NCBI GenBank assembly: GCA_964187785.1
Contig: OZ076415.1
Span: 13,454,001 to 13,518,000, forward strand
Length of the DNA: 64,000 bases
Reading direction: 5' to 3'
DNA from: Amphiscolops sp. MND2022
Lineage: Eukaryota
In this document: piece by piece, positions 9,493 through 64,000 of the stretch
Layout of the letters: the number at the start of each line of letters is the position of its first letter
Position numbering within the stretch: the stretch's first letter is position 1
The notes under the pieces: model-generated
The model's input: only the letters and a program-made list of their open reading frames with translations
Databases searched by the model: none
Told to the model about the DNA's origin: nothing
Translations under genes and position numbers: made by a program

Positions 9493-10058
9493 CAAAAATT
9501 TTTCCGCGACTCTTTTATTAATAATCAAGATTGAGGTTACAACACCAATAATTCAGAAAATTTTTGAAAAAAAATGCTAGAAGTTGATAAACAAGAGGAG
9601 TACGTTTAAATACCCATGCGCTCTAAGGCTCATGTCGTCTAATGCTCAAAAAGTGCAAATTCTCGTCGAAATGCTCAGGGCGGTTTTTGTTGACTTTCAG
9701 CGCGGTGTGAAAATATTCCAAAGGGCAACATGTGGCCAACTGAAAGACAGTTTCTGCGAATGTTGGTCGCATACATTCTGTGGTAGTACCACTGAAGAAA
9801 ACTGTGTTAGCCGAACATATTTTCTTACGAAATACGCCAACTAAAAACTATCCCGTTTGACGCTACAAAACACTTGGGAAACCGAAAAGAAATCGGCCAT
9901 GTTGTTGATGAATTTCGTTTGTGAGTTCCCGGGTTTCCCTTCCATACAAAAACAGGTCAATCATACTCTGCCATCATACTCACAGTGTGATTCCAGGCTG
10001 ATCATACTCTGGACCATAAAGGTTTTTGGTTCCAGGCTTACCATACTCTGGACATATA
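9493..10058. repeat. Duplicated copy of the flank of B's 5' LTR (matches 26879-27541)
   Basis: Near-identical sequence (caaaaatttttccgcgactc...ctctggacatat) with two indels. Ends inside the foldback repeat. Confidence 0.9.
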
Positions 10059-11499: not shown

Positions 11500-12963
11500 A
11501 CTGAAAGCAATGTGTCACGTGTTTTGTATTCTGTATTAGTTTGTGTCTTTTATCTGTTGTTGTACTGGTATGGTGTTTTGTTGAAAGATGTTAGGCGGAG
11601 AGTAGTATGAAGAAAACAAACCTGAAAAAGGAATGAATGATCCAAAAGATTCTCAACTTGGAAAGTCAATTTGAGATCAGAACCAATCTTATATTTCCTA
11701 ATTTGGATTCACGGTGACATTTAGAAAGGAGTGAAGATATGAAGAAAGTGCAGTGAAGGGTGAAAAAAGAGGGGTTAAAGAAAGGGCAGGAGAAAGAGTT
11801 AATACTCTTTGGTTGAATACTCTGGTTGAATAGAAGTTGGAGGGGGAACATGAGAAAGCTCAGGCGTTGCGGAAAATGGAGGGATTAGTTTAGACGAGGC
11901 TTTGTAGATTTCTTCAGGAAAATTAGTAGTAGCTGGAAAATACTTATCTTGTTTCTTCAAACGAAAGAGGAGAGTTTTTCAATAACAAAGTTCGGTTGAG
12001 CAGTAGAAAATTGTTCATGTACAAGTGAGGTGCATGAAGAGCGCGTGTGGTCATCAAGATGTGTTTCAACAAGTTCATTCATTTTGGAGTTAGGAACACT
12101 ATTAGGAATTTGAAAAGTAGGAAGGAGAAAACCATCGTTTGAATAAAGAACGAACTGAAGGCGAAGTCAATGGTGATAGGGCGCAAGTATTTAAATCTGT
12201 TTAACAAGGTAATGAGTAAGGATTATTCCGATGGTTGGTGTAGAGGTGGTGTGAAGAGTAATGAGAGTGGTAGGAGAAAGGCGAAGTGAATTTGTGGTTT
12301 TGAAAGATATAATTTTGAGGATGTTTTTGTTCGAGGATAGGTTGATTAGTTTAACGATGAAGTTTCTTGAGTGAACGAGCGGTTGTGATGCCGTTCGGGT
12401 TTGTATAAAGACCATGTTGATGTGGTATTAAAAACGTTGAAGTGAAATTGGAAGAAACGCATTCGTTTTTGTTGCCAGAAGGAGAGTTGTTCTACTTTCT
12501 CAGATGCATTGGCGACAAAAAGATCAAATTTACGGTCTTGGTGGAAACGGAATATTTAGGTAGCAGGAGTCATATAAAGAGAAGGAAGATTAGCTCTAAA
12601 ATTGAGATGAGTGCGTAGAAGTTTCTCAGTCATTGTATTAGGTTGGGAGGGTTTTTTACAAAGAAGTAGAGTAGGAGTATTATTACCAGAACAAATGAAG
12701 GCAGGGTCTTCGAGAAAATAGTATTTTTTCTTTTGAGGAAAACTATAGGTACAATTATCAAAAGCAACTCGAGGATTAGTAGGCGGAGGAGTAGGAGTCT
12801 TAAGGGTTGAAGAGAGAGGTTGATTATAATAAGTAGAAACACTTGAATATGGATTGGAGGAACATGATTGAATGATAGGAAGTGTTGGTTCAGGAGTTGA
12901 ATCAGAAGTGATAGGAGCTGGTTCAAGTACCTGGGTTTGGAGTTCAATCCTGCCTGATTTCAA
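11500..12963 (-). pseudogene. Unknown accessory ORF remnant downstream of env in element B
   Basis: Long, nearly open frame: RVAFDNCTYSFPQKKKYYFLEDPAFICSG...LRTHLNFRANLPSLYMTPAT*IFRFHQDRKFDLFVANASEKVEQLSFWQQKRMRFFQFHFNVFNTTSTWSLY, and later LRLQFVLYSNDGFLLPTFQIPNS...HLDDHTRSSCTSLVHEQF. No family recognised. Confidence 0.5.
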
Positions 12964-15900
12964 TGCGAGACAATATTGCCTGAATTCAATGCGAGAGGTG
13001 GAGACAGAGACGGGATGTCAGAAAGAAGTTCACCATGGTAAAGGAGAAGTCATTTTTAGAGGTTTCTTTCGAAAGATGATTTGCGTTAAAATTTGAAGAT
13101 ATACTAGTGTAGAGTACAGGAAATGTGCAGTTTGATGACAGATTATACAATTGAGAGTGAGAATGCGGTAGAAACTGTTAAAACTGTTTCAGTTGATGAA
13201 TGATTATATAAGTGAAAAGATAGATGAAAATGCGTACTATTTTGACTCGAAAATTCTTGATTCTTTGAAGAGCAAAATAGAGGAAGAGAAAGCATCGTTA
13301 CTCAATGGGATGCAGCGAAAAGTGACCAAAAGTATTGAACAGAGAGGTGGTTATTTTGTTGAGGTGGAAAGCACAAGAAGAAAAAATTATGAGAGGGCTT
13401 TTAGGTTGGTTAAAGATACTATTGACAGAAATTGATGGGAAGTCATCAAACTTCGTTGGTGGTTGCGTAGGCGGAGAAATTTTGGTTGAGCCACAGTTTT
13501 GTTTACTGGGGAATTATTAGAGGAGGTGTCAAAAATGGTGTTTTCAGGAGAAGTAGAACAATGTAATTATGGGGGTGATGTCATTGGGGGTGACTTCAAA
13601 TTATAGTAAGGAAGAGGAAAAGAATTAGAAGATTATCGAGAGAAATAGAGATTAAAGGCAGAGATCTTAGCTAGGGATTTAAATTTTAACCGTTCATTAT
13701 CTTAGTTTTAAAACTAGGGTTTTAGTCGGATTTGTATTTTTCAAAAAAAAAGTATTATTAGTAGGTTTGAAGAAAGAGGTGGAGGTGATTCTGAATCATT
13801 ATCGTCAAAATCGGAACTGTCTCCTAGCTGTCAACATGGTTTTTGTTTCGGTTCCAAAAAAAACAACCTAATGCCGAAAATTTGTCTTTTAGGAAATCTT
13901 TTAACAGTAAAAGAGCAATGTAATTTGAAGAGGGCATTGAAAGCGAATTGTAAAAAAAGCAAAGGCAAAAATATTCCACAATGAGCTAAAATACAACAGG
14001 GCTAATCAAAAATTTAATGAAAGCTTCAGTGAACCATTCAGGGGTGAAAAAAGAAAGTTGGGTTTAACATTTAATGTGAAGCCCAAGTCGAAGAGATTCA
14101 GGAAGAATATCAAAAAGGTGTTCAGATGATTGTAAAATCATAACTTCATAACTAATAGCTTTTCCAAAGAGTTGGAGTGTATTATCAGAATGTTTTGAAA
14201 AAAACGCATTTCCAAAATTGTTTTACTTCTTTTTGAGAATGAACACCTGCTTCTTGGACGGTAAAGGAGCTAGGGCAGTTTGAATTTGAGTAGGTTCAAA
14301 AATTAGTAGTAGCTGGAAAATATTTATCTTGTTTCTTCAAACGAAAGAGGAGAGTTTTTCAATAACAAAGTTCGGTTGAGCAGTAGAAAATTGTTCATGT
14401 ACAAGTGAGGTGCATGAAGAGCGCGTGTGGTCATCAAGATGTGTTTCAACAAGTTCATTCATTTTGGAATTAGGAACACTATTAGGAATTTGAAAAGTAG
14501 GAAGGAGAAAACCATCGTTTGAATAAAGAACGAACTGAAGGCGAAGTCAATGGTGATAGGGCGCAAGTATTTAAATCTGTTTAACAAGGTAATGAGTAAG
14601 GATTATTCCGATGGTTGGTGTAGAGGTGGTGTGAAGAGTAATGAGAGTGGTAGGAGAAAGGCGAAGTGAATTTGTGGTTTTGAAAGATATAATTTTATTT
14701 TTACCAGTATATCTGGAGTATTATTACCAGAACAAATGAAGGCAGGGTCTTCGAGAAAATAGTATTTTTTCTTTTGAGGAAAACTATAGGTACAAATATC
14801 AAAAGCAACTCGAGGATTAGTAGGCGGAGGAGTAGGAGTCTTAAGGGTTGAAGAGAGAGGTTGATTATAATAAGTAGAAACACTTGAATATGGATTGAAG
14901 GAACATGATTGAATGATAGGAAGTGTTGGTTCAGGAGTTGAATCAGAAGTGATAGGAGCTGGTTCAAGTACCTGGGTTTGGAGTTCAATCCTGCCTGATT
15001 TCAATGCGAGACAATATTGCCTGAATTCAATGCGAGAGGTGGAGACAGAGACGGGATGTCAGAAAGAAGTTCACCATGGTAAAGGAGAAGTCATTTTTAG
15101 AGGTTTCTTTCGAAAGATGATTTGCGTTAAAATTTGAAGATATACTAGTGTAGAGTATAGGAAATGTGCAGTTTGATGACAGATTATACAATTGAGAGTG
15201 AGAATGCGGTAGAAACTGTTAAAACTGTTTCAGTTGATGAATGATTATATAAGTGAAAAGATAGATGAAAATGCGTACTATTTTGACTCGAAAATTCTTG
15301 ATTCTTTGAAGAGCAAAATAGAGGAAGAGAAAGCATCGTTACTCAATGGGATGCAGCGAAAAGTGACCAAAAGTATTGAACAGAGAGGTGGTTATTTTGT
15401 TGAGGTGGAAAGCACAAGAAGAAAAAATTAAGAGAGGGCTTTTAGGTTGGTTAAAGATACTATTGACAGAAATTGATGGGAAGTCATCAAACTTCGTTGG
15501 TGGTTGCGTAGGCGGAGAAATTTTGGTTGAGCCACAGTTTTGTTTACTGGGGAATTATTAGAGGAGGTGTCAAAAATGGTGTTTTCAGGAGAAGTAGAAC
15601 AATGTAATTATGGGGGTGATGTCATTGGGGGTGACTTCAAATTATAGTAAGGAAGAGGAAAAGAATTAGAAGATTATCGAGAGAAATAGAGGTTAAAGGC
15701 AGAGACCTTAGCTAGGGATTTAAATTTTAACCGTTCATTATCTTAGTTTTAAAACTAGGGTTTTAGTCGGATTTGTATTTTTCAAAAAAAAAGTATTATT
15801 AGTAGGTTTGAAGAAAGAGGTGGAGGTGATTCTGAATCATTATCGTCAAAATCGGAACTGTCTCCTAGCTGTCAACATGGTTTTTGTTTCGGTTCCAAAA

Positions 15901-16345
15901 AAAACAACCTAATGCCGAAAATTTGTCTTTTAGGAAATCTTTTAACAGTAAAAGAGCAATGTAATTTGAAGAGGGCATTGAAAGCGAATTGTAAAAAAAG
16001 CAAAGGCAAAAATATTCCACAATGAGCTAAAATACAACAGGGCTAATCAAAAGTTTAATGAAAGCTTCAGTGAACCATTCAGGGGTGAAAAAAGAAAGTT
16101 GGGTTTAACATTTAATGTGAAGCCCAAGTCGAAGAGATTCAGGAAGAATATCAAAAAGGTGTTCAGATGATTGTAAAATCATAACTTCATAACTAATAGC
16201 TTTTCCAAAGAGTTGGAGTGTATTATCAGAATGTTTTGAAAAAAACGCATTTCCAAAATTGTTTTACTTCTTTTTGAGAATGAACACCTGCTTCTTGGAC
16301 GGTAAAGGAGCTAGGGCAGTTTGAATTTGAGTAGGTTCAAAAAAT
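11919..16345. repeat. Tandem duplication inside element B (2380-bp unit followed by a 2041-bp unit)
   Basis: 11921 matches 14301 (offset 2380) and 12674 matches 14715 (offset 2041). The second copy lacks 12317-12673. About 9 substitutions seen by eye. Confidence 0.97.
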
Positions 16346-26000: not shown

Positions 26001-26231
26001 GAGAAGCATCAAAAAACAAGCATTGCAAAAACGTAAGAGATGAAATTGATAGTAGCAAAATTTTAGGGTAAGAACATTTTAGGCGTTAAGGAAATTATCG
26101 GCGGATGAAATCAATCATTAATTGGTAGACGACTAGAAGAGCGATTGCAAAAAATCCAAAAACATACAACAAAAACACAAGCATAAAAACAGAATCATTT
26201 AAAGAAAGAATGTAAAAAACGGTGAAATTAT

Positions 26232-26526
26232 GTGTACCAACAGGATTGTGGAACCAAAATGGATTTGATTAGTACAGAACGGATTTTAAGTTTGTACCGA
26301 ATACGAGGTCGATCCACTTTTGAAGGTGGTTAGTACAGAAGAAGGGTTATACCAGCAGAAATACTGGATCAAATGTGGTGATTAGTCCAAAAGAATAATT
26401 CCCGACTGAATGTCGAATCACTTTTCGTTTGTGATTAGTAGAGAATGATTTGTGCCGAATTTCAATGAAAATGGTCTGTACCGACAGAACGTCGATTCAT
26501 TTTTGATTTTGTGACTAGTACAGAAA
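26232..26526 (-). repeat. Leader array of ~55-bp hairpin/UACUAAY units, element B
   Basis: Same three-motif unit and same unit order as 7194-7477. Confidence 0.85.
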
Positions 26527-26571: not shown

Positions 26572-26573
26572 GT

Positions 26574-26878
26574 TAAAGTACATGTATATTGTTGGAAATG
26601 TTATGTTATTTCTGAATAGGGAAGTTCAGTAATTCAAGGAGACGCTAAACAGAGCTGCAGTATTATGTCTAGATATAAATGACACCTTGCTGATAGAACG
26701 GATATTTCAGTTGTGTTTTGGATATAAATCAAAAGTGCTTCACATTTATAGATTATGTGATGAATACTAATGAGCATATTAATCTTCAAAGTGCCTACAT
26801 GCAAGTCTAGATGTTTAGACAATTCAGACAATAGGTGGGGGATGATTCAAAAGGTATTTCATCATAGGTATATCAACA
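26574..26878 (-). repeat. 5' LTR of element B
   Basis: Starts TGTTGATATACC on the minus strand, adjoins the PBS, homologous to 9179-9492. Confidence 0.88.
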
Positions 26879-27479
26879 CAAAAATTTTTCCGCGACTCTT
26901 TTATTAGTAATCAAGATTGAGGTTACAACACCAATAATTCAAAAATTTTTGAAAAAAAATGCTAGAAGTTGATAAACAAGAGGAGTACATCTAAATACCC
27001 ATGCGCTCTAAGGCTCATGTCGTCTAATGCTCAAAAAGTGCAAATTCTCGTCGAAATGCTCAGGGCGGGTTTTGTTGACTTTCAGCGCGGTGTGAAAATA
27101 TTCCAAAGGGCAACATGTGGCCAACGGACAAAAATAGCAAACTTGTTGAAAGACAGTTTCTGCGAAAGTCGCATAGTGTCGCTCTGATACTCCGAGGGTT
27201 GGCGATACTGTGTATTTTAACCACTAGCAGCGACAGCTAACTCTGTTGGTCGCATACATTCTGTGGTGGTACCACTGAAGAAAACTGTATTAGCCGAACA
27301 TATTTTCTTACGAAATACGCCAACTAAAAACTATCCCGTGTGACGCTACAAAACACTTGGGAAACCGAAAAGAAATAGGCCATGTTGTTGATGAATTTCG
27401 TTTGTGAGTTCCCGGGATTCCCTCCCATACAAAAACAGGTCAATCATACTCTGCCATCATACTCACAGTATGATTCCAG

Positions 27480-27716
27480 GCTGATCATACTTTGGACCAT
27501 AAAGGTTTATGGTTCCAGGCTTACCATACTCTGGACATATATTATCCAGTCTATGATACGCCATGTTCCATAAAAAAGCAAATTTATGGTTCCAGTCTGA
27601 CCATAGTCAGTGCCATATATGGTTCAGTCAATGATTAACCTGAACCATAAACATTTATGGCCCAGAGTATGGTAAGCCTGGAACCATAAACCTTTATGGT
27701 CCAGAGTATGATCAGC
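27480..27716. mobile_element. Foldback/MITE-like element with 56-bp inverted arms
   Basis: 27480-27535 is the reverse complement of 27661-27716 with 1 mismatch. Built from catactctgg/accataaa sub-repeats. No TSD seen. Confidence 0.7.
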
Positions 27717-29503: not shown

Positions 29504-32500
29504 AAAACAAAAGTGGGCCTTCTAACACTTTGAGGTTTGCAAACATATGTTTAGTCCTGAGGAGGCATCGAACCGACGATTATATGCTTGGTAAGTGTGC
29601 ATGGCTACTGGCTTTCAATCTATGGAATGAAAAAATAACTGTTCAAAAGTGGAACATTCTGTCGTTTCAAAAATTAGAAAAACAAAAACTGATTGAGGTC
29701 TGAGTTTCCAAATGATTAGTTATGTAAATTATGCAGTTCAGACTTTGTCGCCAGCGTTTTGAAAGTAATAATGGAAACGTTTTCAAGATGTCAAGATTCA
29801 AGTTAATGTTCCCTTCCAAAAGGAACGATTGTAACATCTAATGATTAAATTTCTAATACCCCATCAGGAGGATTAAATGAGTTGTAAAAGTTTTATTTAC
29901 TCATACCTCAGGTTTTTTTGGAAAATACCAACTAGTTGAAAACCAATGGAGAACTTCAATTTTGCTGAAACAAAACTGGGAGAGGTGGAATTGTTGTTGC
30001 TGGCTAGCCTTAACAAAAGTGTTTAATACTTGACTTGACTTTCGCAATGAGGAATCGTTTTTGTTGGGTTTAAAAATGGTTTTTGGTTTAACGAGTCAAC
30101 AAAGATGCATGTTCTTCATTTTTAAAAAGACCTTCAAGAATCAGAGTGTGAGAAGACGTTGTATCTGAAACAAGACGATATAAACTGAGAAATCAAAAAC
30201 ACACCATTGACTTATGTTTTAGTCGCTTCTAGTTGTCAGCGGGTATTATTTTGCGAGTTCCGAAGATGTCAAACCACAGAGGTCAAACATTTAAGAAATT
30301 GTTGCAGTGAAAAGTGCATTGTTTTCAAGGACGGAACGTGTACTTACCACAAGTAATGAGAGGGCCTTAACCGAAAGTGACTGTGTTTAAAGTTTTTCTT
30401 TCAAAAAATGAGTTTTAACCATAATGGTTCTTTTATTGATTGACACCCTAAAAAACGATATCGAAACAATATTTGTTCTGAATATGCAACCTGAAACGAG
30501 ATTCTCAATGTGCTGCTCACTGCTAAATGTTTCATTTTTATTATCAAAAGTTCATCTAATAGAATGAAAGGTATTCAAAAAATTACAGTAAAACAAACAA
30601 ACAATAAGTTTTTCCATTAGATACAACCCTAATTTTCGCAAAAATTTAGATGATTGGAAAAAAATTTTTGTAACCCTATGACACAATAAAAAGCTTGAAA
30701 ACTTATAACCTGCAGAATCGTTCAACCGATAAACAACTTGGTGAACTTTGAATTAAATCCACAATACAAGAGACCGTAAGTTTATTTTTAAACCTTAAAA
30801 TAGTAACTAGAACCGATTTCGAAAGATTAGAAAAAATGCGTATTTAAACTTTAACTTTTGAAGTGAATAAGTTAGCAAACTGTATTGGATCAACACTGTG
30901 TTGGATTAACCGGAGTCTTTTCAAAAAAATTTCTACTCAAGTCTTTATGAATTTACTGATTTGAATCTTTTAAAATTAACGGGATGAATTAGTCGACCTC
31001 CAAAGCAGCTATTTTTGTCGTTAAAGCAGAAACGTTATATTAACTGTGCTATTCATTCTTTTTGTTGTTTTTGCTTGGTCTATTTATTCGATTTCTAAAT
31101 TTTAGCTGCAAACTTGAAGTATCAATCTCATCTTTCAGTTGAGGGGAAAATTTCCAAAAAATTAATATGATAAATAGTACAAAAAAACTAATCCTTCACA
31201 ATTGATACCAACTGTAAAATTTCCAGAAAAGTGGATCATAGAAAGTCAGGTTCAAAAGTTTTACGGTATACATCTTACAAAATCACACTAAAGAGCTAAC
31301 ACCGCTTTAACCGGTTGCATCACCTCGTTTAACCGAACTAGAAAATGCTGACTTTGGACTGACGCAAGAATACTAGTTAATGCTGGCTGAAAACATGTGA
31401 AAAACCTACGATATAAAAGATGAAAAATCTTTCCAATACTTCTTTCTGACAACTTTTGAAATCAAAAGTGACAGCTAACTAGTTTTTGAAAACAATATGT
31501 TGTTAATGTTATACCTTTTGAACCAAATACTTCAATCGATGATGGTGGTTAACCAATTGAAAAAGATTATCTTGAAATTATGTTCAACCCAATAAAAAAT
31601 GAACGAAGTGATTTGAATGTTTTGTGAATAACACAGCAAATAACTCCATGTACAAAGCAGCAACATCTTTCTTTTGTTAAAGAAGGACATAGAACAACAT
31701 TTCGACAACAACATACAATTTTGTGGGGGTTTGAATATCATTCTATTAGATTCGAATTATGGAACAAAACGTTTGTTTTTGGTTTCAATTCTTCGAACTT
31801 TACAGAGAACAAGATATAGCATGGAAGCTTGAATTATACTGAATGAATACCAAAAATTATAACTAACTTCTACTGAGTTGTTGGACTTCTAACTCAACTA
31901 CTTCAATTTCTTCGTGTTTTCCCAAAGAACAACACTGCAAAGCGAAAAAACAGAACTTCCTAAGAACTTTAACAAAAACAGTATATCAAACCTTGCTTGT
32001 TTTTGATCATTTGATCAAACAAGTAAAGCCGAAGAACTAAGTGATCTTTGCCGAATTATGGTAAAAACTGCTGAGTTTGTTAGAACGAAATTACCAAGTA
32101 TTCCGGAAGGGCATCAAAGCAGTTCACTATTTTTGGCAGAGCGCCGATACTAAAATCGCTACATGACAGCTGCAATCGCATAAGATTTTGAAAAATTTGT
32201 CAATGAAAAATGTCAGTAGCGGGAAAAGTTATGGAAATTTAATTTTGTTGCTTGCCTGTACATCGCTTTATTATCAACTTTTTGATTATATCAGACAACC
32301 TGTACTTGTGATGTCTGTAACTTCAAAAAACATATAGTTGCATGAAAGTGAAAAACGGAAAAACAGAAAAGCTTGGAAATTACAACAAGTCAAAGCAGTG
32401 AACCGATGGAATTTTTTCAACTGGATGAAACTCCGGTACCTTATGAGTAACCAACACAACTGAGTCCCGTTTAACTCGAGAAGCAAGAGAGGATTTCTTT

Positions 32501-32837
32501 AGTTTCCAGTGTTATTAACAGAGTACTTCACAGAAATTTACTGACGAAAGTGATAAAAGCTCATGAAAGTTTTACCATCTCAACGAGTTTATTCAGTCCA
32601 ATATGATTGACTCTTCAATTTGTCAAAATAATTTTTGATCTTTCAAGTGATGATAGCAACTCTCAGTCATCTAGGAAAACAGGTTTCACATACTAAATAA
32701 CTCTCATTTCATCCCAAGCAAGCATAGAACCTTCAAATATGATCTTTTCAAACCGCTAACAAGAATTTGAAAACTCAGTCCTACATTTTTTATGAAATTT
32801 TACTGCATAAATTTTTTGGGTAGAGAACAGTAACTTT
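29504..32837 (+). repeat. Left arm of a 3.3-kb inverted repeat (decayed coding-like sequence)
   Basis: Reverse-complement homology to 34313-37714 along its whole length, roughly 80% by eye, with a perfect 112-bp block at 32650-32761 / 34393-34504. Confidence 0.9.
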
Positions 32838-34312: not shown

Positions 34313-37300
34313 AAAGTTACTGTTCTCTACCCAAAAACTTTATGCAGTAAAATTTCCTAAAAAATGTAGGACTGAGTATTCAAATCTTTTCGTGTTAGCG
34401 GTTTGAAAAGATCATATTTGAAGGTTCTATGCTTGCTTGGGATGAAATGAGAGTTATTTAGTATGTGAAACCTGTTTTCCTAGATGACTGAGAGTTGCTA
34501 TCATTACTTAAAAGATCAGAAACTAGGTTGACAATTTGAAGAGTCAATCATATTGGACTGAATAAACTCGTTGAGATGGTAAAACTTTCATGAGATTTTA
34601 TCACTTTTGTCAGTAAATTTCTGTGAAATACTCTGTTAATACCACTGGAAACTAAAGAAATCCTCTCTGGCCTCTGGAGTTAAACAGGACTCACTTGTGT
34701 TGGTTACTCTTAACGTCCAGGAATTTTCTCCAGTTGAAAAAGTTCCACCTGTTCACTTTTTTGACGGGTTGTGATTTCCTGTGGTTTCTTCCAAGCTATT
34801 TTTTTCTTTCTTTTTTCTAGTTTTATGCTTCTATATGTTTTTTGAACTTACAGTTATCACAATTACAGGCTATGTGAGATTATCAAAAATTTATTATTAT
34901 CACATTGGAGAGGCAGGCAACAAAAATAGAAATCCATGAGTTTTTCCCTGATTTGACGTTTTTTATCAACAAACTTTAAAAAATCTTGGGCAATTGCAGC
35001 TGTCATGTATTGATTTTAATATCGTTGCTATGTCAATTATAGTAAACTTCTCTGATGCTCTTCTGGAATTCTTGGTATATTCGTTCCAACAAACTCAACA
35101 GTTTTTTACCATACTTCGGAAACTGTCACTCAGTTCTTCGGTTTGACTTATTTGATCAAAAAAGGAGTGTTTAAAGCTTTGCTTTTTGTAAAAGCTCTTC
35201 CGAATGCTTTTTCGCTTCCCAGTTTTTTTTCTTCGGGAGAACACTAAGAAGTTGAATTAGTTGAAGTTCAACCACTCAGTAGAAGTTAGTTTTGAGCTTC
35301 GCAAATCCAATTCATCATAATTCAACTTCCATGCTGCATCTTGTGCTCTGTAAAGTTCGACGAAATGAAAGTAAAAAAAGGTTTTGTTCTTTTTTTGGAA
35401 TCTAATGGAGTGATATTCAAACATCCACAAAAGTGTATTTTGTTGTCGAAATGTTGCTGTATCCCTTTTTACAAAATAGAAAGAAGTTGCTGCTTTGGAC
35501 GTGGTTTTATTTGCTGTGTTATTCACAAGGTTTTTCAATCAGGTCGTTCAAAATTTTTTGGGTTGAACATAACTTCAAGATAATCATTTTCAATGGATAA
35601 ACCACCACAACAATGAAGTAGATTATTCGGTTCAATAGGTAAAACAATGATAACATTTTTTTTGAAAACATATTGCTAGAACTTTTTATTTCGAAAGTTG
35701 TCGAAAAGAAATTATGGAATTTTTTTCATCTTTTATATCATGAGTTTTTCATATGTTTCAAGCATTTACCAGTCTTTGTCGGTCAGTCCAAAGTCAGCCA
35801 ATTGTTGTTCGGTTAAACGAGTTGCTGTAAAAGGTTAAAGCGGTGTTAGCTCTTCAGTGATTTTAAAAGATGTATACTGTATAACTTCTGAACCTGGTAC
35901 TCTTTGATCCATTTTTCTGGGAACATTAGAGTTGGCATCAAATACGAAGGATTAGTTTTTTTGTAATTTTTAATATATGAGATTTGGAGAGTTTTCCCTG
36001 ATCTGAAAGAATAGTTTAATAATATAAGTTCATAATTAAAATTTTGAAACTGATCGAAAAGACCGAGCAAAAACAACAAATATAGTGAGAAACACAATTG
36101 ATATAACGTTTCTGCTTTTACGACATAAAATGCTGCCTTGGATTTCGAGTAATTCTTCCCGTCAAAAATAAAAGATTTCCATCAGTTAATACATAAATTC
36201 CTGAGTAGAACACTATTTGAAAAGACTCATTTTCATTTGTTATTTCAACACAGTTTACTGACCAATTCTTTTCAAAAGTTAATGTTTCAATACGCATTTT
36301 TGCTAAATTTTCGAAATCGTTTCTGGTTACTATTTAAGATTTTAAAACACGTTTACCGTCTACTGTATTTTGCAGTTAAATAACCAAGTTCACGAAGTTG
36401 TTTACCGGTTGAACGATTTTGGAGGGTGTTAGTGTTTGTGAGGTTTTTTTCACTGTGTTAAAGGCTTCCAGAAATTTTACTCCAAATATCTACTTTTCTC
36501 CGAAATTTAGGGTTGTATTTAACGAAAAAACATAATTGTTTGTTTGTTCATCACATTCTTCCTCCTGATTTTTAGAAAATTTTTCCTTTTACTAGATGAA
36601 ATTTTGAAATCAAAAGTGAAACATATAACAGTGAGCAGCACATTGAGAATCTTTTGATAATGTTTTGATCATTTTTCAGATAATTTGGTAAACTGTGCAT
36701 GGTAACGGTGGACATAAGAAATCTATTTGTTTTGTTGCTTCTTTTTAGGATGTGAGTCAATAACAAAACCATTATGGTTGAAAACTCATTTTTTGAAAGA
36801 AAACTTCTGACACAGTCACTTTCGGTTAAGGCCCTCACATTACTTGTGGTAAGTACACGTTCCGTCTTTGAAAACAAAGCCGTTTTCACTGAAAAAATTT
36901 CCAAAATGTTTGACCTCTGTGGTTCGACATCTTCGGAAAATCCAAAAACGAATCTATTTGATAACTAGAAGCGACTAAAAGTCAAAGTGTTTTTCAATTG
37001 TCAGTGGACAACATCTCGGTTCAGATACAATGTCTTCTCTTACTCTGATTCTTCAAGGTCTTTTCAACAATGAAGAACATGCATCTTTGTTGACTCGTTC
37101 AATCAGAAATTTTTTTTAAACCCAACAAAATTGATTCAACATTGCAAAAGTCAGGTCAAGTGCTAATAATTATCGTTAAGGATAGCCAGAAACAACAATT
37201 CCAACTCTTTTAAGTTTGTTTCAGCAAAAATGGTATTCTCTTTTCGTTTTGAAGCTTCTGGAATTTTCCAACAAACCTTAAGAAAGAACTGAAATAAAAC

Positions 37301-37714
37301 TTCTACAAATCACTAGATCCCTCCTGATGGGGTATTAGAAGGAAGGTTATTCACCAGACGTAACAATCGTTCCTCTTGAAAGAGAACAATAACTTGAATC
37401 TTGAAATCTTGTAAAAGTTTCCAATATTACTTTCAAAACGCTGGCAAAAAAGTCGGAGCTGCTTGCATTTTACATAACTAATCATTTGGAAAATCAGACT
37501 ATCAGCCACGTTGTTGTTTCAGTCAGCGCAGTTCAAAGGAAATGTTCCCGACTACGGAAATGTTTGTTCTTCTAAATTTAGATTCTTCAAAAATTAAACT
37601 GAAAACCAGTAGCAGGCACACTTACCGAGCAAACAACCGGTCGGTTCCATGCCTGCTTAGGACTAGACATCGGTTTGCAAAACCTAAAAGTGTCAGTGGG
37701 CCACTTTAGTTTTT
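34313..37714 (-). repeat. Right arm of the 3.3-kb inverted repeat
   Basis: Mirror of the left arm. Shared translated remnants such as KT(A/V)EFV.T..P.IPE.HQ.S and YMTAAIA.DF.KFV. Confidence 0.9.
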
Positions 37715-50199: not shown

Positions 50200-50500
50200 A
50201 CCGATTTTGACCAAAAAATTTCGACACTACTGCAGAAAGACTCCCGACATCGATATCAAACAGACATTTTCGGATGGAACACTCGCTGCAGCATGTTGGA
50301 TCGATCGACGAAGAAGCAAACTTTCATTTGGAGCCCGGTTCTTCCGCCATAGAAAAACCCAGACGCCAAATAATACAGTTATTCAAAGAATATTTCATGC
50401 CGAAACGAAACACAAACCACATCAATGTCGATCTTTTCTGGGCGCAACTCGAAGTCAAACATCCAAAAAAAAACTCCAAGAAAAGCCAATCAAAGAATGA
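50200..50500 (+). pseudogene. Possible gag-like fragment of another retroelement
   Basis: IIQLFKEYFMPKRNTNHINVDLFWAQ resembles the retrotransposon gag L..YF.PK.N motif. Preceded by a possible LTR end and TGG (gcgcaaca tag tggcaacc) at ~50151-50170. Confidence 0.35.
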
Positions 50501-50612
50501 AAGTTAAAAACAATTGGATTCTTTTGACAGTCACCAACCCATATGCAACAACGAGAGACATTATGCCAAAGAGTGCTGAAGCGAAACTGGTGACAACGGC
50601 AGAAAGCGTAAC

Positions 50613-51494
50613 AATTCAGATATCAACAACCTTCACATATCAACAAGATCACACGGTTTGAGAACGACCACTACTTCTTTAGTAGTAAACTACATTAGTG
50701 AAAGTAAACTGTGACCTAAAGGAAAATTCAGATATCAACAACCTTCACATATCAACAAGATCACACGGTTTGAGAACGACCACTACTTCTTTAGTAGTAA
50801 ACTACATTAGTGAAAGTAAACTGTGACCTAAAGGAAAATTCAGATATCAACAACCTTCACATATCAACAAGATCACACGGTTTGAGAACGACCACTACTT
50901 CTTTAGTAGTAAACTACATTAGTGAAAGTAAACTGTGACCTAAAGGAAAATTCAGATATCAACAACCTTCACATATCAACAAGATCACACGGTTTGAGAA
51001 CGACCACTACTTCTTTAGTAGTAAACTACATTAGTGAAAGTAAACTGTGACCTAAAGGAAACTCAGATATCAACAACCTTCACATATCAACAAGATCACA
51101 CGGTTTGAGAACGACCACTACTTCTTTAGTAGTAAACTACATTAGTGAAAGTAAACTGTGACCTAAAGGAAAATTCAGATATCAACAACCTTCACATATC
51201 AACAAGATCACACGGTTTGAGAACGACCACTACTTCTTTAGTAGTAAACTACATTAGTGAAAGTAAACTGTGACCTAAAGGAAAATTCAGATATCAACAA
51301 CCTTCACATATCAACAAGATCACACGGTTTGAGAACGACCACTACGCCGCTGTCGTGGCCCGCTCCCGTTCTGCGCTGGAATTGCAGAACAATCAGTTTC
51401 GGAAGGGGCCATGGGTGAACATCAAAATCATTAACTTGGTTTTATTGAACTAGTAAACTACATTAGTGAAAGTAAACTGTGACCTAAAGGAAAA
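50613..51494. repeat. 112-bp tandem array, 6 near-identical units plus a 7th carrying a 105-bp insert
   Basis: Unit starts at ~50615, 50727, 50839, 50951, 51063 (111-bp variant), 51174 and 51286. Insert at 51346-51450. Confidence 0.97.
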
Positions 51495-55022: not shown

Positions 55023-55464
55023 TGTGACGTCATGATGCATGACATCAAGAATCCTAACATTTATAAAAGTATAATTAAACTTCGTAACCTAATAGCATGA
55101 CAGATGCCATTCTATCTAGAAGTTAATACTTCATTTATTAAGATGCTAACATTTCTGATGATTCCATTATAAAATGTAATCCCTTTAATTTCATCTTATA
55201 ATGATTTGAATTCTATTTAATCTCAATATTGATTGGTGTACTAGCTAAATCTATATACTCAGAGTAACTAGAATGTTGTAATCAAACAGTACTCTCATCT
55301 TAGAAGAGAAAGAGTTCTGAGATCTCAGCTTGATATCATTCTACTCAGTTTGGTAAAAGAAGAATAGCTAGCTAGACGGTATTTCTGTTAAGACTTTGTA
55401 AGAACTTCTTATGTGGTCAATGAAGGAATTGAAGTCAAACATCACACAAGTCTTTAACAGCTCA
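55023..55464 (+). repeat. 5' LTR of element C
   Basis: Starts TGTGACGTCA at a composition shift, TATAAAA at ~55072, ends ctca 2 nt before the PBS. Left boundary not confirmable without the 3' LTR. Confidence 0.7.
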
Positions 55465-55466
55465 AT

Positions 55467-55481
55467 TGGTGCGACCACGAA
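55467..55481 (+). promoter_or_regulatory. Primer-binding site of element C (TGGTGCGACCACGAA)
   Basis: TGG start after the LTR, followed by a pyrimidine-rich leader. Shared with element A. Confidence 0.82.
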
Positions 55482-55562
55482 AATTCTCTTTTCTCTTCCC
55501 CTAGTACCTCAAATTCACTCCTATTGTACACTTTTTCTCAACTTTTTCATCCGATATTTCTT

Positions 55563-55841
55563 TGTTCGACATACCGTGTCGCCTCTTCTTTCTCTTGTAT
55601 ATAAATGTTAATTCACATATGGTTCTGACTGCGTCCTCCAACGTAATTCCTGTCAGTAAAAACTTTTGGTTCTGACTACATCTTTGTACGTAATTCCTGT
55701 CAGTTGCTAGTTTCTGGTTCTGACTACGTAATACCGTAATTCCTGTCAGTTGCATTTTCTTCGTTTCAAACACCGTAAGGTGAATTCGTGTTGATTTTTC
55801 CTTTCTTTCGTTCCAACCGCAGACGTGCGATTCGTGTTGGT
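55563..55841 (+). repeat. Leader array of ~47-bp bulged stem-loop units, element C
   Basis: Outer stems start at 55625, 55672, 55720, 55766 and 55813, each with an inner stem and a 3' ATTC(C/G)T bulge. A simple CGACA/TGTCG hairpin lies at ~55567. Confidence 0.88.
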
Positions 55842-56599
55842 TTTCAAATCGTGGGAATTCGGCGATTCCTGCTAGTCACATTCTTTGGTTCTAGCCGCTT
55901 GGATCAACTTAAAAGAAAGTTGGCACATACCCTAACATATTTTCTCTTCTTTTCTTCTACACTATCTTGATATATACATATTAACTTTCTTAAACACTGC
56001 CGCGGATCAAAAGGACGAACTTCAGTTCTGATAATATCAAAACTATAACACAAATAATATCAAGATTATAATACAAAAGTTAGACTAAAAAACCTACCCT
56101 ACCTTTAATACTATTACTATCTAATACAAACTCAACTTTCAACACAAAAAAAAATACACAAATTCTCTCTTGGTAATGGTTTCAGTTGATACTTTAGTAC
56201 GCTTTTTACTTTTACTTTGGTTCTCCTTCGGTATACTTGCAGGTATTTCACTTTTCTTTGACAGATTTCTGGTCCCTTTCATACCAGGATTCTAATACTT
56301 TAAGTGAACATGCCTCATTCTGTCCAACTACCACCAATCTTTCACTCTCGTGTGATACATACTATAGTACTCCCTCTTTTTGGTCTTCTTGGAATCTATT
56401 ATACAATTTGTACGCTACTTTCACTAACATCTAATAAATTCTTACTCACCTTTTTAACTATAATTACTCTTTTTTTACAAATCATGTTTATAGACCTAAC
56501 ACTTCCATATCCTATCCATTTCACTACGCAATATATTCTCACCCAATATTTATTTTCTTTCTTAAACAATTTCTATTATGATTGATTTAAAATTCCCTA

Positions 56600-59500
56600 T
56601 TAACATTACATAATGCTTCCCATTCCATTTACATTATCTCCACAACAAACATCTGCTCGTTGAATAACTCAAGATGTAATACCTTTCGTAAACAATCTAA
56701 TTTTTCAAAACACAAATCCACTTTCATTGAAACTGAACCACACTCTATACATACAATACCATTACTTCGAGAACACACTTAGTTAGATGCATACCTTTAT
56801 TACTTCAGGTATAAAACCTTTGACATTACACCTTCACAACAAAATTTTCAAGTCATTTTCAATCCCGTACAAGATGTTAATTCAGGAACAATTTATAGAA
56901 ATATTCATCCTCAAAATTTAACACTATCGATCCAAGATGTTTTTACTACCTATATAGACAAACTTATTGAACATAATGAGAACTTAGATAGACCACAATA
57001 TCGACCTTCTCTTCTCGAAAGTTTAAAAGAAAAAGCATCTCTTTCGTTATACCAGATATAGACACAAAAATTATACGCCATAATAATCCTCATTATTGGC
57101 TTCAACAAGATCTTTAACAAGTCACAAACTTTCAGTACAGATTTTTCCAAAATATTATACTAGATGTTGATACTATACCACAAATCAAAACCTTCTCTCA
57201 CTTTCTCCTAAACTTTTTAAGATTTAACTATCAACTGTTATGGGAACAAAAAGATCAAAACGCATACGTTTATTTTCTCCAGGTACTTACTGATACTGAA
57301 CTCCTACCATTTATTATCCGAAACGATTTCAAACACCCTTTTAAAAAAAATTTCACAACTTTTCCCATATCTAATATTGACTCTATAATCATTTCTGATT
57401 TCCTTATCGAACAATCCGAAACTTCAGATAATAGACCTCATACGAATTTACTTCAAAATACCACTGATGACCATGAGAATGTATTATCTGAAACTTCTGT
57501 CAATAGACTTAATATAAATTTATTTCAAGACAACACTACTGACGATGAACCTGTAATTCAACGTCAACCAACTACTCCACAACAACCATCACAAGTAACA
57601 CATGATACAGCCGAATCCGTACAAGGTATTCTCACAAATCCACCTAACACTTCTATTACTACAGATTCTAATGCTATTCAGATACCTACTCGAAACATTA
57701 CAGAACATACTGATCATATTTTCAAACAAGAAAGCCCTAACCCTTCTACAACATTCGTAACAAATACTATTGACACACAACCACCTCAATTACATCACAC
57801 AATACAACGAAATTATGATCCACCACTTCCCCCATGTGAGATTTCTACCCATAGTACTCCTCATAATTCACCTCAACAGGGTTCTTCCAATACTTTTTCC
57901 ATCAGACAAAACCTCTTACATGAAACTCAGTTTCACACAAGTACTACACCAATACAATCTCATCAAACACTACAATACCTTCCTGCTCAACCATCTGTAT
58001 CATCCAATACTTCTATATTAACTATTAATACTTTACATACTAATCCTATAACTAATGTTACTACTTCTCGCAATTTGTCAAGACCTCGTTTACCACTTAT
58101 TCAAAATAACCCACTTTCATTCAATCTTATTAGTACCAATCTCCATTCACACTCCTTTTCAAATAATTCAGCCCACTAATACAAATATACAATCTTCTGC
58201 TATAAATTTTCATCCTCATATTCCTTCTACTACAACACAAACAATTCCACCTATTCAACCAATGACCCAATCTCAAACCAATGCTCTCAATATACCTCCC
58301 ACATTCTTTAATCCTTCTACTACTCATACTCTACCTCCAACTACTTTACCTCTGTCTACTTTAAGTACTCCAACATACATTAACTCTGCTACATCTATTT
58401 CAGAACCTATTAAACTTTTTGATGGTTTAGACCATAATTACACACCAGAAGAATACTTACAACACATTGAAGCCCGTGTTACATTTTCGTTAGGATTACA
58501 ACCTACCACTGTTAATGAAAAGTTGGCATGCTCGCCGAATAGATTTTAGACAATGTTCACTCACTGGAACTGCTCTTAGTTGGTACATTCGCTCAAACGA
58601 TACTTATAAACAAGATTGGAACGCTTTTGTACAAGCTTTCAAAAAACAATCATCTTCACAAAAAAACGCCTATTATGCCCAAGTTGAAGCTCTCATTTAA
58701 CAAAAAAGGATAATGAAACTGTTCGCCATTTTCACTTAAAGTCCAAGAACTCGTTGAAAAAGGCTGGTGTGATGAAAATGCATCAACCATCAACCTTAAA
58801 TGCAATGAAATCTTTACCAAAGGCCATCCCAAAAACCTAAGTGATTTTGCAAATAAACTACAAGTTAAACATACTTCTACTGTTTCAGAACCTTCAATTC
58901 CTTTCCATACACTTGTAAAACTTGTAGATGCTGAATACATAGCAAATGACAAAATGCGCACACATGATCTAACCCTTGAAGTCAAAATTACAAAACAACT
59001 ACAAAATCAAACATTAGACTCACAACAATCTGATCAAAGAATGTTTACACAACCACGAGTTGCAAATAATAAAACAAAATCCGCTTACAAAAAGCACTGC
59101 ACCTATTGTCATAGAACAAACCACTCTATCTCAGCCTGTTTCAAAAAACAACGAGATGATGAAGATAAACGTGATACTTATGCACGATCAAAGTCTCCTC
59201 AAAAATCTTTTGTACAATATTTTTGTTCTTCCTCCAATGATAAAACACCAAGATATGATTCAAGACCAAATGACTATTCCACTCGCTATCATAGTCGAAA
59301 AACATCTTCACATGGTTATCAAAAATCCAATATTTCTCAATATCGACAACGATTTACTTCTAGACCTCGTTACAATTATAATCGAACTACTACTTCTCCA
59401 CATTATACCCGGTCTCTGTATGACAACTATCAAAGAGATTCTCGTTCACATCGTTAACCATACAGATCTTCTTACAGATCACCTTACAGACGTGATTCAC

Positions 59501-59700
59501 GTCCCCGATATAAATCTCGATCTTACTCCAGAGATAACAACTTTCAAAGATATACTGCTTCTTACAGACCGCCGTCCAGACCTAGAGATTCTCGATATTC
59601 TCGATCTCGTTCACATTCTCGTTCACACGAAACAAAATTAACAATATTCAACAACAAACTTTTACAGATCCAATCAACTTGGGAATTTACATGTATCACC
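56600..59700 (+). pseudogene. gag: gag remnant of element C
   Basis: N-terminal domain (IPLLREHT*LDAYLYYFRYK...); Pro/Thr-rich linker; EPIKLFDGLDHNYTPEEYLQHIEARVTF; SLTGTALSWY; CTYCHRTNHSISAC (59098-59139); Arg/Ser-rich tail. Confidence 0.9.
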
Positions 59701-59798
59701 CAACAGAAATGGCAAATGCATTAACTCCTACAAGCTGGTTTTACTCTTTAGATACACATGCTTCTCCCAATCAAACCAACGTGACTATCCTTCGAGAC

Positions 59799-60768
59799 TC
59801 GAAATTTCTTTCCTTATGTATATTGGTGCTTCAATTTATGTAATAAACCATCCTACCTATATTACTATTGCAAAACTTCTTCAAATTAAACAAAATAACC
59901 GACCTAATTCGTCGAAAACACTCACAGTCGCAAATCAAACGGAAGCTCCTTTTTTACACTACGTGATCATTACTTTGAATACTACCATCGAAGATGACTC
60001 CCGTCAATTTACAATACCGTTTGCAGTAGCTGATATAAAATATAATATCCTTGGGACACCTTGCTTTGAAGAAAATAAACAAAACATAAATATCCAAGAT
60101 TTTACATTACAATTCAAACAACACTCAAGAGTACATCCTAAGTATGCTACATTCACTTCACTATTATCCAAAGATTACCCATATTTTTCTGATATCTACA
60201 GAACTAAATCCAAAACACAAATTCGTCTAAAACCAAATTCTTCACAAATTGCACATTTTTCTATAAACAATTACTACAAACTTCGAAATTTCTTTCCTTT
60301 TGGATATTGGTGCTTCAATTTATGTAATAAACCATCCTACCTATATTACTATTGCAAAACTTCTTCAAATTAAACAAAATAACCGACCTAATTCGTCGAA
60401 AACACTCACAGTCGCAAATCAAACGGAAGCTCCTTTTTTACACTACGTGATCATTACTTTGAATACTACCATCGAAGATGACTCCCGTCAATTTACAATA
60501 CCGTTTGTAGTAGCTGATATAAAATATAATATCCTTGGGACACCTTGCTTTGAAGAAAATAAACAAAACATAAATATCCAAGATTTTACATTACAATTCA
60601 AACAACACTCAAGAGTACATCCTAAGTATGCTACATTCACTTCACTATTATCCAAAGATTACCCATATTTTTCTGATATCTACAGAACTAAATCCAAAAC
60701 ACAAATTCGTCTAAAACCAAATTCTTCACAAATTGCACATTTTTCTATAAACAATTACTACAAACTTC
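59799..60768 (+). repeat. 484-bp tandem duplication of the protease region of element C
   Basis: 59799-60284 repeated at offset 484 with 3 visible differences. The second copy keeps LLDIGAS; the first has LMYIGAS. Confidence 0.97.
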
Positions 60769-61299
60769 ATCTCTCGTCAACACCCCACAAACAGTTTTTC
60801 CCCACCATTCCACATACCTACATTTCGTCAAAATTTCGTTCAACTTCCAAGTTCGTTGAAGTACTTACAGAGAACAAGCCAGACACTTGTGCTACAATTA
60901 TTCAAAACTCTACAAATCATATTGCAACACTACCTATAGGACATATTGGATATATCTAAATCCCAATACCTAATGAAAAACCTAAATATTACCAAGTGAA
61001 TGACAAAAACACGCTTATACTCAATGTCACCTATACGTACTAGCCGGAACTTACAGAACCTTACCACTAACAAATTACTCAATACCTCCAGAACAACAAT
61101 CAACTTCTTCAACACCCTTTTCCCCACATCAAGTCTAAATGACTAATCTAAATCCATTGCCACGTACATTGTCTCTTTATAATGTGCAGCCTACTTCTCA
61201 TTCTTCACAACCTAGAGTATTCCCTTCTCTACCATATTCACCAGAAAATCTCAATTTTATCAACAAGTTCAACTTCCAATTCTCTGACCTTACAGATAC

Positions 61300-62750
61300 T
61301 GAATATATTACACTTTGTAATATCTTACTCAAATGTAAAACCTGCTATGCTACCCATAAAAATGACGTTGGCAAGATTGCAACTCCTTTCCGTATCCGAC
61401 TCAAACCAAATGCTTAATTAATTGCACAACGTCGTTCTAAAGTACCCATTCGCTATCGTGATAAACTCAATACTCTTCTCAAAGAATTAGAAAAACATAA
61501 TATTATAAAACAAATTGGTTCTTCTCCTCAGGATACACCAGTTTATGGTACTACTTATTTAAATCCCCTCATTATTATTCCCAAAGGTGATTCTATCAAA
61601 TGTGTATTAGATGCACGTTACCTTAACTCCAATACAGAACAATCAGACGAATCCTGGCCTATTGAACCTCTTGCTCCCCAACTAGCACGCGCAAACAAGA
61701 AATATAAATGTGCATTAGACCTCAAGTACGCCTATGCACATACACCTCTAGACGAAGAAACTCTTAAACTTACAAGTTTCTCTTCTGGTGACAAACTCTT
61801 TGCTTTCATACGAGGCTTTTACGGTCTCAAAGGACTCCCAAATTTCTTTACTAAACAAATGTCAACATTCTTTAGAACACTTATAGCACAAGGTTTTGCT
61901 CTTGTTTATATCGATGATATTTTACTTTTATCAGACTCTAAAGATCACCTGTTTCAACTTATTGAACAATTACATCTTATAAGCACAAAACATAATCTTA
62001 AACTTGCTCCTGAAAAATCCTTTTTCATGCTTCTCAAAATTAAGTTTCTAGGACATGAAATAGGTTACAACACTATCAAACCCATACATTCCAAAATTGC
62101 AGCAATACACAAAATACCTTCCCTCACTGGAAAAGTTGCTCTAATGAAATTCTCAGGCACACTTACCTCTTACACCAAGTTAATCGAAAAACTTCACATT
62201 TTTTTCAAACCATTTTATGATTTATTACATGAAAATACTTCCTGGAAATGGACTGAAGAACATGAACGCTTATTTCAAACAGTAAATACATCTCTTACCT
62301 CTGACACAGCACTTACAATTCCTAATACCAAAACATCCGTTTTTCGTTTCTGTCGACGCTTCATTCATTGGATTAGGTGCTGTTCTCTTCCAATTGAATG
62401 AACAAAATTAAATGAAAGTAATCTCTTACAATTCCCGTATATTGAACCCCCAAGAACAAAAACTCTCTACTCTTGAACGCGAACGTATTGGCATAGTACA
62501 CGCTCTTCAAATTTACGAATTTATCATAATCGGATCACCCCGTCCTATCCATATATTCACTAACCATAAACCTCTTTTACAATGTTTTACAAAAAAGGGA
62601 AACCTCAGTCCACGTTTCTATAGAGCACAAATGCAACTCACAAAATTTTCAAAACTTAAAAAACATACATACTCCTGGAAAAAACTTTTCCGTTGCTGAT
62701 TTACTTAGTAGATCTTTTGCAAAAGAAGAACTTCAAATAAATCAATTCAA
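61300..62750 (+). pseudogene. pol: RT-RNaseH remnant of element C
   Basis: YLNPLIIIPKGDSIKCVLDARYLNSNT; YIDD at 61907-61918; ISYNSRILNPQEQKLSTLERE; IFTNHKPLL. Confidence 0.93.
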
Positions 62751-63619
62751 ACAAAAACACCTTCCACCTCATATTGACTTTACAATAGTACAAAATAATG
62801 CACTTAAACCCGTACATTACCTAATTGAACATGAAGAAGTTTTACCTCATCAAAAACATGATTCTCATACAATTCTCGCAGAATATGGAACAGACCAATT
62901 TTCATTACGTATTAATGACAAAGGAAACGATATTATAGTTAAACCTTTAAACTCATTTTCCTTTAAGCTGTTACTCCTTTTCAAATCAAATTCAAAAAAC
63001 CTATCAAAAAACATAATCAGTCCCTTCATCAACAATCTCCCCTACTCAACGATACCGATGTTACAAGTGATGATGATGAACACATTTACACTAGAATTCC
63101 AAAAAATACTTCTTCTTTCTCCTTCAATGGCACGTTACACGGACAAGAAGAATCCTTTTCCACAATAACTAAACCAAACCTCAACACAACACCATCGTCA
63201 ATATCAGAATCTACCTCTGTTAGAGATGTACAAACCAATTCACCACTTATGACACACTCTCCACAAGTAGTACCTTTTTACGATCCTTCCTTCTTTAAAT
63301 ACAAAACATATTTTCAAGGCTTCTTCCTTCCTGATGACTACTCATTAGACCTTAAAACACTCCAAGTCCAACAATTTCAGGACACGGTTCTTCAGACTGT
63401 ATATTCATGGATATCTCGAAACGAAAAACATTAATTTCTTACTCCTCTAATTACTGGTAATCTTTTCCTACATGCATATTACAAACGGTTTACACAGCCT
63501 TTCATCGACACCACTACCAATCTTATAAGCCTTTATATAACAAATCCACTTCCTCCTGAAACACACCCTATTTCAATTCCCAAATTACTACATAGTACTA
63601 TTAGAATTTGCCTCCCTTT

Positions 63620-64000
63620 TAGAATGTTTCAAACTGAATTTAACAAACTTCATGACATGAGTGACATTCTCATACAGGTATCAAAATAACTTTTATACTT
63701 TCTCTCAATATTCTTATCTTCCTTATCTAGAAAAATGACTCTCTACTTTTATACATGGTTGTCTAGAATGTCAACGAAACAAACATTTCAATGTGAAAAT
63801 ACAGACTGCTCCTACAAAGCCGTTTTCGGAACATGCTCCTTCCTTCAATTACAGAATTTCAATGGATACAAAAGGACCCATAAATCCTCCATCACAACAC
63901 AAATCATACATTCACGTCATAGTTGACGCTTTCAGCCACTTTATTGTTACTGTCCCAATCAAATCGAACAATGCCAAAACTGCAGTTAAAACTTTACTAC
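63620..64000 (+). pseudogene. pol: Integrase N-terminal part of element C (truncated by window edge)
   Basis: IHGCLECQRNKH zinc finger; RISMDTKGPINP (first catalytic D at 63865); VIVDAFSHFIVTVP. Confidence 0.9.

Follow-up and report, generated by a model that had tools for sequence, protein, structure and literature searches.

The window analysed here is a 64,000-nt stretch of the Amphiscolops sp. MND2022 assembly (contig OZ076415.1, positions 13,454,001 to 13,518,000). It includes the 5' part of an LTR retrotransposon, element C, whose leader carries a tandem array of small bulged stem-loops between the primer binding site (PBS) and gag-pol. The features of element C surrounding this array are the following.

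55023..55464, plus strand: 5' LTR, with ends TG...CA
55467..55479, plus strand: PBS, a 13-nt complement of the 3' end, CCA included, of a host tRNA-Val(TAC) gene
55525..55530, plus strand: 6-nt palindrome TGTACA in pyrimidine-rich surroundings, with an exact match in 71 of 93 loci
56176..56295, plus strand: hydrophobic uORF of 39 aa, located past the array and ahead of gag; its frame is open in 45 of the 62 loci with enough flanking sequence
56601..64000, plus strand: gag-pol, broken in the window copy

The 3' LTR lies outside the window, ~17.8 kb downstream of the 5' LTR (L198:2833-3275). Both LTRs are 94.6% identical, and the whole element, ~18.3 kb long, is flanked by the target-site duplication CTCC. 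LTRs ending in TG...CA with a duplication of 4-6 bp, and a 13-nt PBS matching a host tRNA, here tRNA-Val(TAC), are both as expected of Ty3/gypsy elements (Metaviridae). In the window copy, gag-pol is damaged by frameshifts, stops and a 484-bp duplication, with the reverse transcriptase (RT) located at 61418-62401. A young relative, a natural copy, encodes a single 2734-aa ORF matching the Pfam families Retrotrans_gag, RT, RNase H and integrase in the order typical of Ty3/gypsy, and this ORF is followed by one matching Pfam Monjiviricetes_fusion (E 1e-24). Element C is a decayed env-bearing Ty3/gypsy element, and its family is large and active: 146 RT matches scored at ~89-90% identity, many within open 2734-aa frames. 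The env-like ORF recalls Anakin, which the available part of PMC7642597 presents as a BEL/Pao element with a chuvirus glycoprotein. Unlike in Anakin, the Pol and Gag profiles found here are of Ty3/gypsy type, and no Pao-specific family was among the matches; env capture by element C was probably an independent event. Identity with Troyka, as characterized in the accessible portion of PMC12440569, was ruled out by the LTR ends and the target-site duplication.

Several features of the coding part and leader were recorded in related copies. The env-like ORF spans 916 aa with its Monjiviricetes fusion domain inside a Ty3/gypsy element (L128:1598-4000, L196), and two further ORFs of 418 and 449 aa lie around env in the young copy without a significant Pfam match. 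In the Gag of element C, a single CCHC knuckle precedes a tail rich in Arg, Ser and Tyr; in the young copy (L127:2049-4900) this tail measures ~150 residues, and ~680 residues upstream of the capsid domain have no Pfam match. The same young copy contains an exact 554-nt tandem duplication of the LTR end, PBS and whole array (L127:359-1507). Short hydrophobic uORFs of 39-48 aa, plus one of 78-79 aa, stand between leader and gag in lineages C and A (L192:930-1560). The first of them had no match in Pfam, and they resemble the Drosophila sORF2 fusogen-like peptides as far as these are described in the excerpt of PMC11952523. When amplified subfamilies retaining the array but lacking gag were sought, the gag start was present in 57 of 62 loci, and the remaining five were not shown to have a common deletion.

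The array lies 155-460 nt 3' of the tRNA-Val PBS, upstream of all uORFs. A first-pass annotation made from the letters alone had reported five units at a spacing of 46-48 nt, and these were recovered with start sites at 55621, 55668, 55716, 55762 and 55809 (spacing 47, 48, 46 and 47).

55621..55656, plus strand: U1, type I, flank GGUU, outer stem P1 CUGAC/GUCAG, inner stem P2 UGCG/CGUA with a G·U pair, bulge AUUCCU
55668..55703, plus strand: U2, type I, with a private P2 change in the window copy
55716..55749, plus strand: U3, type I pattern
55762..55794, plus strand: U4, type II, flank CGUU, P2 CACC/GGUG, bulge (A)AUUCGU
55809..55840, plus strand: U5, type II, with a GACG tetraloop kept in 79 of 92 U5 units

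A search pattern for single units matched the window 4 times compared to 0.00 in 100 shuffles, U4 escaping it because of GTTT, while a two-unit pattern returned 1636 matches across the 1.07-Gb assembly against 1 in the control. Arrays were present in all 93 family loci parsed, for a total of 489 units with 3-7 per locus (two mis-parsed type I units were excluded from later counts), and the outer stem, inner stem and conserved bulge drawn from the window copy were found throughout (93/93). The unit consensus consists of an S-G-U-U flank, a 5-bp P1, a stacked P2 of 3-7 bp, a variable loop and a 3' bulge A-U-H-C-S-U. In type I units P1 reads CUGAC/GUCAG; in type II units it reads (C/G/U)CAAC/GUUG(G/C/A), and P2 comes in three variants. 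Loops of type I units contain few unpaired G residues (61 of 1539 bases).

Comparison with relatives also corrected details of the units as first drawn. The UACA/UGUA stem and long bulge attributed to U2 are letters private to the window copy, relatives reading UACG/CGUA. Likewise, the CAAA of U4 is private, with CAAC in relatives; at the subfamily level the P1 of U4 is closed by a U-A pair, and the window copy has one private mismatch. The GNRA loop noticed in U4 occurs in only 5 of 91 U4 units and is not conserved, in contrast to the GACG loop of U5 (79/92). Finally, the extent initially proposed, 55563..55841, starts 58 nt before U1 and covers U1 to U5, and the annotation overlooks the conserved 5' flank, a sixth unit (U6) and a terminal three-way junction.

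Rfam covariance models gave two weak sub-threshold matches in the window stretch, none at the gathering score, and no match in four loci of C, A and D types. In searches of the open-access literature, no such array was found described for leaders of LTR retrotransposons. The array motifs appear to be new small RNA folds, one of which occurs naturally in two circular permutations. A T-loop, or UA-handle, combines a G-C pair with a reverse Hoogsteen U·A pair and has two bulged bases that vary. When the units are compared to it, G, U, U, A and C are invariant, the second bulged base is variable and the first is not, and position '56' is C, G or U. Inspection ruled out a B-box (GTTCRANNC is absent from C units) and a self-cleaving ribozyme (no familiar catalytic core was seen).

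We observed that conservation differs between the parts of a unit. Among loci not picked for mutations, columns of the flank, stems and bulge were mostly 0.9-1.0 conserved, the exceptions being the P1 end pair, which covaries, the wobble position of type I (A/G) and a single bulge base that tolerates change. In the loops, most columns ranged from 0.37 to 0.81, and linkers from 0.44 to 0.94, with a conserved linker after the unit U0, running directly into U1. The 5' flank SGUU was conserved to the same degree as the stems. These per-column values and the flank-bulge counts given below exclude 22 loci picked for a changed flank base.

Several stem positions change on both sides of the pair. The P1 end pair is G-C in 33 and C-G in 16 of 53 U0 units, and C-G in 102 and U-A in 15 of 133 CAC units; at the seventh position of P2, U0 has C-G in 34 units and U-A in 17. 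Clade-fixed double changes comprise C-G to G-C and inner U-A to C-G in U0, and C-G to U-A in U4; placed on a tree made from the region preceding the array, they amount to three clade-level double changes, both U0 ones falling on the same branch. Compensatory events are scarce, each being restricted to a single clade. The first free pair past CAC/GUG was Watson-Crick in 46 of 88 distinct middles, compared to 28.5 after shuffling; no Watson-Crick excess was seen at the pair after it, nor in type I units when tested likewise. Across 43 distinct U0 units, the named structure was 94.2% paired versus 89.1% in shuffles (0/500), and 31-47% paired when slid along the alignment. The number of covarying U0 pairs, in contrast, was no better than in shuffles (199/500).

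Furthermore, the second P2 pair of type I was A-U in 114, G·U in 88 and A·C in 2 of 209 units, and G·U outnumbered A·C by 62 to 2 in 151 distinct units. Both states coexist within 57 of 90 loci. The large excess of G·U over A·C, with both states within loci, points to the sense strand and bears out the earlier observation that the G·U pair of U1 works only in that orientation. Together, the three clade-level compensatory switches and the sense-strand G·U support RNA pairing. The array is supported as a real, selected structure of the sense-strand RNA in the leader 3' of the PBS, as first suggested.

Thermodynamic measures of the fold were less favorable. The 236-nt array was no more stable than its shuffles (z -0.62), and unit folding energies are weak (-4.5 to -6.6 kcal/mol). 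Isolated units mostly fold better in antisense, the sense strand being better in 67/151, 7/104, 5/48 and 4/43. P1 appears in the minimum-energy fold of 252 of 346 distinct units, and the ensemble prefers cross-unit pairing of identical neighbours over the in-register fold. At positions other than the one in type I, G·U and A·C occur at similar frequencies (64 vs 58), and among 90 distinct middles of CAC units, 19 have C·A as the pair that closes the loop. No relatives of the array outside the source genome were found in viral contigs, where 27 single matches without arrays were seen, and metagenomes gave a single weak partial match; all covariation therefore comes from one genome.

The 5' flank and the bulge appear to be linked as well. 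One flank base and one bulge base switch together between unit types, being G...C in 168 of 175 type I units and C...G in 78/81, 66/70 and 34/37 of type II units, next to an invariant G...C. We infer that flank SG and bulge CS likely form a 2-bp pseudoknot, with a UU loop crossing P1. Support for this pairing is limited to the type I/type II switch and to U6: searches for changed flanks, covering 100 out of 257 matches and 100 out of 104, each gave one isolated compensated unit and no compensated subfamily. Six loci that seemed compensated at this pair (L119-L122, L124, L126) turned out to be unrelated sequences. A search for other purine-initial P1 stems gave 116 matches versus 23 in the control, and three loci (L071, L073 and L076) proved to be unrelated repeats.

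Downstream of U5, the array ends in two nested features.

55862..55898, plus strand: U6, circularly permuted, GCG-AUUCCU-GCUAG, a loop ending in GGUU, then CUAGC-CGC; in 84 of 93 loci
55851..55926, plus strand: terminal three-way junction with a closing stem, a single U, the U6-bearing arm and a CAAC/GUUG hairpin

U6 has its own P1, CUAGC/GCUAG, the flank GGUU having moved into the loop, and forms part of one arm of the junction. A DNA site could not account for this recurrence of the motif in permuted order, which is seen in 84 of 93 loci. The junction is present in 85 of 93 C loci and 14 of 16 D loci, its 5' strand having decayed in the window copy. Plain folding recovered it in 2 of 3 copies tried, the sense strand being more stable in 3 of 3.

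Two sister lineages carry different arrays at the same place in the leader. Lineage D repeats a 4-bp stem, a 5x2 RUUUA/MA internal loop and an inner stem (L150:1580-1910), a motif with 5531 matches versus 17 in the control, whose pairs covary across 39 distinct units. The D array closes with the three-way junction also seen in C, from which it differs by two compensatory changes. A third group, which includes elements A and B of the window, repeats the three-way junction itself ~3-7 times, so that the architecture of the terminal junction is the repeated unit of A/B-type arrays.

7190-7475 and 26220-26525, minus strand: arrays of elements A and B, GUAC-U-AAYC...GRUU-C...G-GUAC junctions behind a similar PBS

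The junction-array pattern gave 541 matches genome-wide versus 0 in the control. P3 pairs of this group switch between G-C and A-U in step (45/47 and 46/47 Watson-Crick versus ~24 in shuffles), and one P2 pair is G·U in 8 and C·A in 2. Lineages C and D each have one unit whose self-pairing loop is fixed, namely GACG for C (79/92) and A(A)-UCCGGA-A for D (95 of the 100 matches listed). The loop of the HIV-1 DIS offers a comparison in shape for the UCCGGA loop. Open copies of the three groups are 75-78% identical in RT and 63-73% in capsid, compared to 41-45% in the Gag N-terminus and 36-43% in the Arg/Ser/Tyr-rich tail after the knuckle; both of these regions diverge faster than capsid. The RT of the open A-type copy is 78% identical to that of C. 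Since elements A and B of the window show no greater similarity to this open copy than C does (67-69% DNA identity, values lowered by decay), the array of junctions may represent the earlier state. A search by PBS for additional lineages (91 matches vs 58 in the control, 80 bases per match) returned only C- and A-type leaders and background.

A packaging and dimerisation reading best accommodates the position of the array, its varying number of units, the exchange of motifs between lineages of one host and the single fixed loop per lineage that can pair with itself. As the first-pass annotation had proposed, the array could be a multivalent Gag-binding packaging signal; this is also our best reading, in a lineage-specific form that includes dimerisation, although we put the chance that it is correct at about even. 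According to this model, the array would dock the element's own Gag, and the genomic RNA would thereby be dimerised and packaged. In each unit, P1 and P2 would stack around the 6-nt bulge, with bulge CS pairing to the upstream SG and UU lying in the P1 groove, and weak units would be stabilised by protein binding. A plausible reader is the fast-evolving Arg/Ser-rich tail after the CCHC knuckle, or the N-terminal Gag domain. Classical zinc-knuckle binding prefers unpaired G, and the scarcity of unpaired G in type I loops counts against this reading. The shared three-way junction would represent an ancestral core signal, to which the array would add avidity and a family identity among thousands of co-resident relatives; a variable number of units (3-7) is expected of an avidity element. 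Two genomes could be linked through the GACG loop of U5, a kissing-loop candidate, or through the TGTACA palindrome, a candidate dimer-initiation site in which no covariation was seen. We tentatively extend this model to lineage 'barcodes', in which each lineage might combine the common ancestral junction with its own amplified tertiary motif, which in C would be a permutable mini-pseudoknot of bulge and flank absent from Rfam, and a co-evolving arginine-rich Gag tail might block cross-packaging; we consider this extension possible rather than probable.

Other functions have to be weighed against packaging. The array might be an export or cytoplasmic localisation signal for unspliced RNA, comparable to an RRE or CTE and read by an element-encoded accessory protein or a host transport adaptor. 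An env ORF would imply both spliced and unspliced RNAs, G-poor bulge and internal-loop motifs suit arginine-rich readers, and the two long ORFs around env might supply such a protein. Three different motifs in one host are difficult to reconcile with a single host receptor, however, and a location right after the PBS with fixed kissing-type loops better suits dimerisation and packaging, which makes export unlikely. Control of translation, through ribosome entry or passage over a 1.1-1.9-kb leader with conserved short uORFs, would fit a gag-pol AUG that follows the PBS by ~1085 nt in C and A and by ~1920 nt in D, behind hydrophobic uORFs, and an AUG adjoining U1 in most subfamilies. This AUG is missing before U1 in some subfamilies (L053, L083, L133, L138), at least 250 nt separate the array from the first uORF, and host initiation factors would not favor lineage-specific motif swaps. 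The uORFs ahead of gag-pol keep this role in contention, but we regard it as distinctly unlikely.

The flank-bulge covariation and the tandem arrangement would also be consistent with exonuclease-blocking folds similar to xrRNAs, whose ring-like pseudoknot stops Xrn1, with the 5' flank paired into the bulge and bracing the 5' end. Such pairing is only 2 bp long, is absent from A- and D-type arrays and has its flank within the loop in the permuted U6, and the units have no Rfam match, making this the kind of function we would be very surprised to find. As for the repeats being DNA-level sites (enhancer or insulator), or neutral tandem duplicates rendered self-complementary by template switching, units do turn over by duplication, 2 of the 96 P1 cells with changes are private and altered on both sides to another Watson-Crick pair, and 5' UTR repeats of gypsy, ZAM and Idefix work as DNA elements according to the accessible text of PMC3383448. 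An insulator would have its sequence conserved free of pairing constraint or strand bias. Conversely, the array displays compensatory switches, a sense-only G·U and a circularly permuted copy, and its bulge is kept rather than erased while loops vary freely; we consider both versions very unlikely.

Among known systems, the array would work most like the retroviral psi and the repetitive structural motifs of coronaviruses, while being a member of neither. Like the gammaretroviral psi (SL-A to SL-D of MoMLV), it lies directly 3' of the PBS and before gag. The psi and dimer linkage of MuLV have a pair of GACG tetraloops and a UCUG feature, as outlined in excerpts of PMC5874298; the array shares a conserved GACG tetraloop, and UCUG is found inside the stem of type I units. 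The likeness to MoMLV noted from the window alone therefore holds for the GACG loop, but there is one GACG unit per leader instead of a pair of hairpins, and the GNRA loop is incidental. Moreover, no long palindromic hairpins are apparent in the array, which repeats a single bulged motif in tandem and belongs to Ty3/gypsy, not Retroviridae. The self-pairing loops GACG (C) and UCCGGA (D) resemble retroviral dimer linkages, for GACG as reported in the same partial source (PMC5874298). Packaging-linked motifs of coronaviruses, such as the UUYCGU loops of SL5 and the agc/guAAu bulges of Embecovirus, are short, lineage-specific and present in 2-8 copies in the 5' region, based on the available sections of PMC8206606. 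The array likewise has several copies of one short structured, lineage-specific motif in the 5' region, but virus, sequence and fold are unrelated, and the analogy is functional only. The 5' cis-acting regions of Ty1 and Ty3 are also structured and have dimerisation palindromes, with packaging sequences not precisely defined, and the accessible portions of PMC11381356 and PMC4974528 describe no repeated motif array there. Finally, the gypsy Su(Hw) insulator and the ZAM and Idefix repeats of Drosophila resemble the array as tandem 5' UTR repeats in an env-bearing gypsy element, but they are DNA sequence sites in what is available of PMC3383448 and PMC12992720, whereas in element C pairing, not sequence, covaries.

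For LTR retrotransposons, Ty1 and Ty3 included, packaging signals are poorly defined. As to how families residing in the same cell keep from packaging one another's RNA, the three related lineages constitute a natural swap experiment, with the same position, a shared junction, different motifs of 35-45 nt and a divergent basic Gag tail.

Other repeats were observed in the window. Decayed elements contain near-perfect internal duplications at 59799-60768 (484 bp) and 11919-16343 (2041-2380 bp). At or near their LTRs, elements A and B have a long imperfect palindrome and an inserted 0.9-kb repeat (27469-27716, 9178-10060 and 26573-27542). An inverted repeat pair of 3.4 kb with 77% identity spans 29504-32837 and 34313-37713, and a 112-bp tandem repeat occupies 50495-51494.
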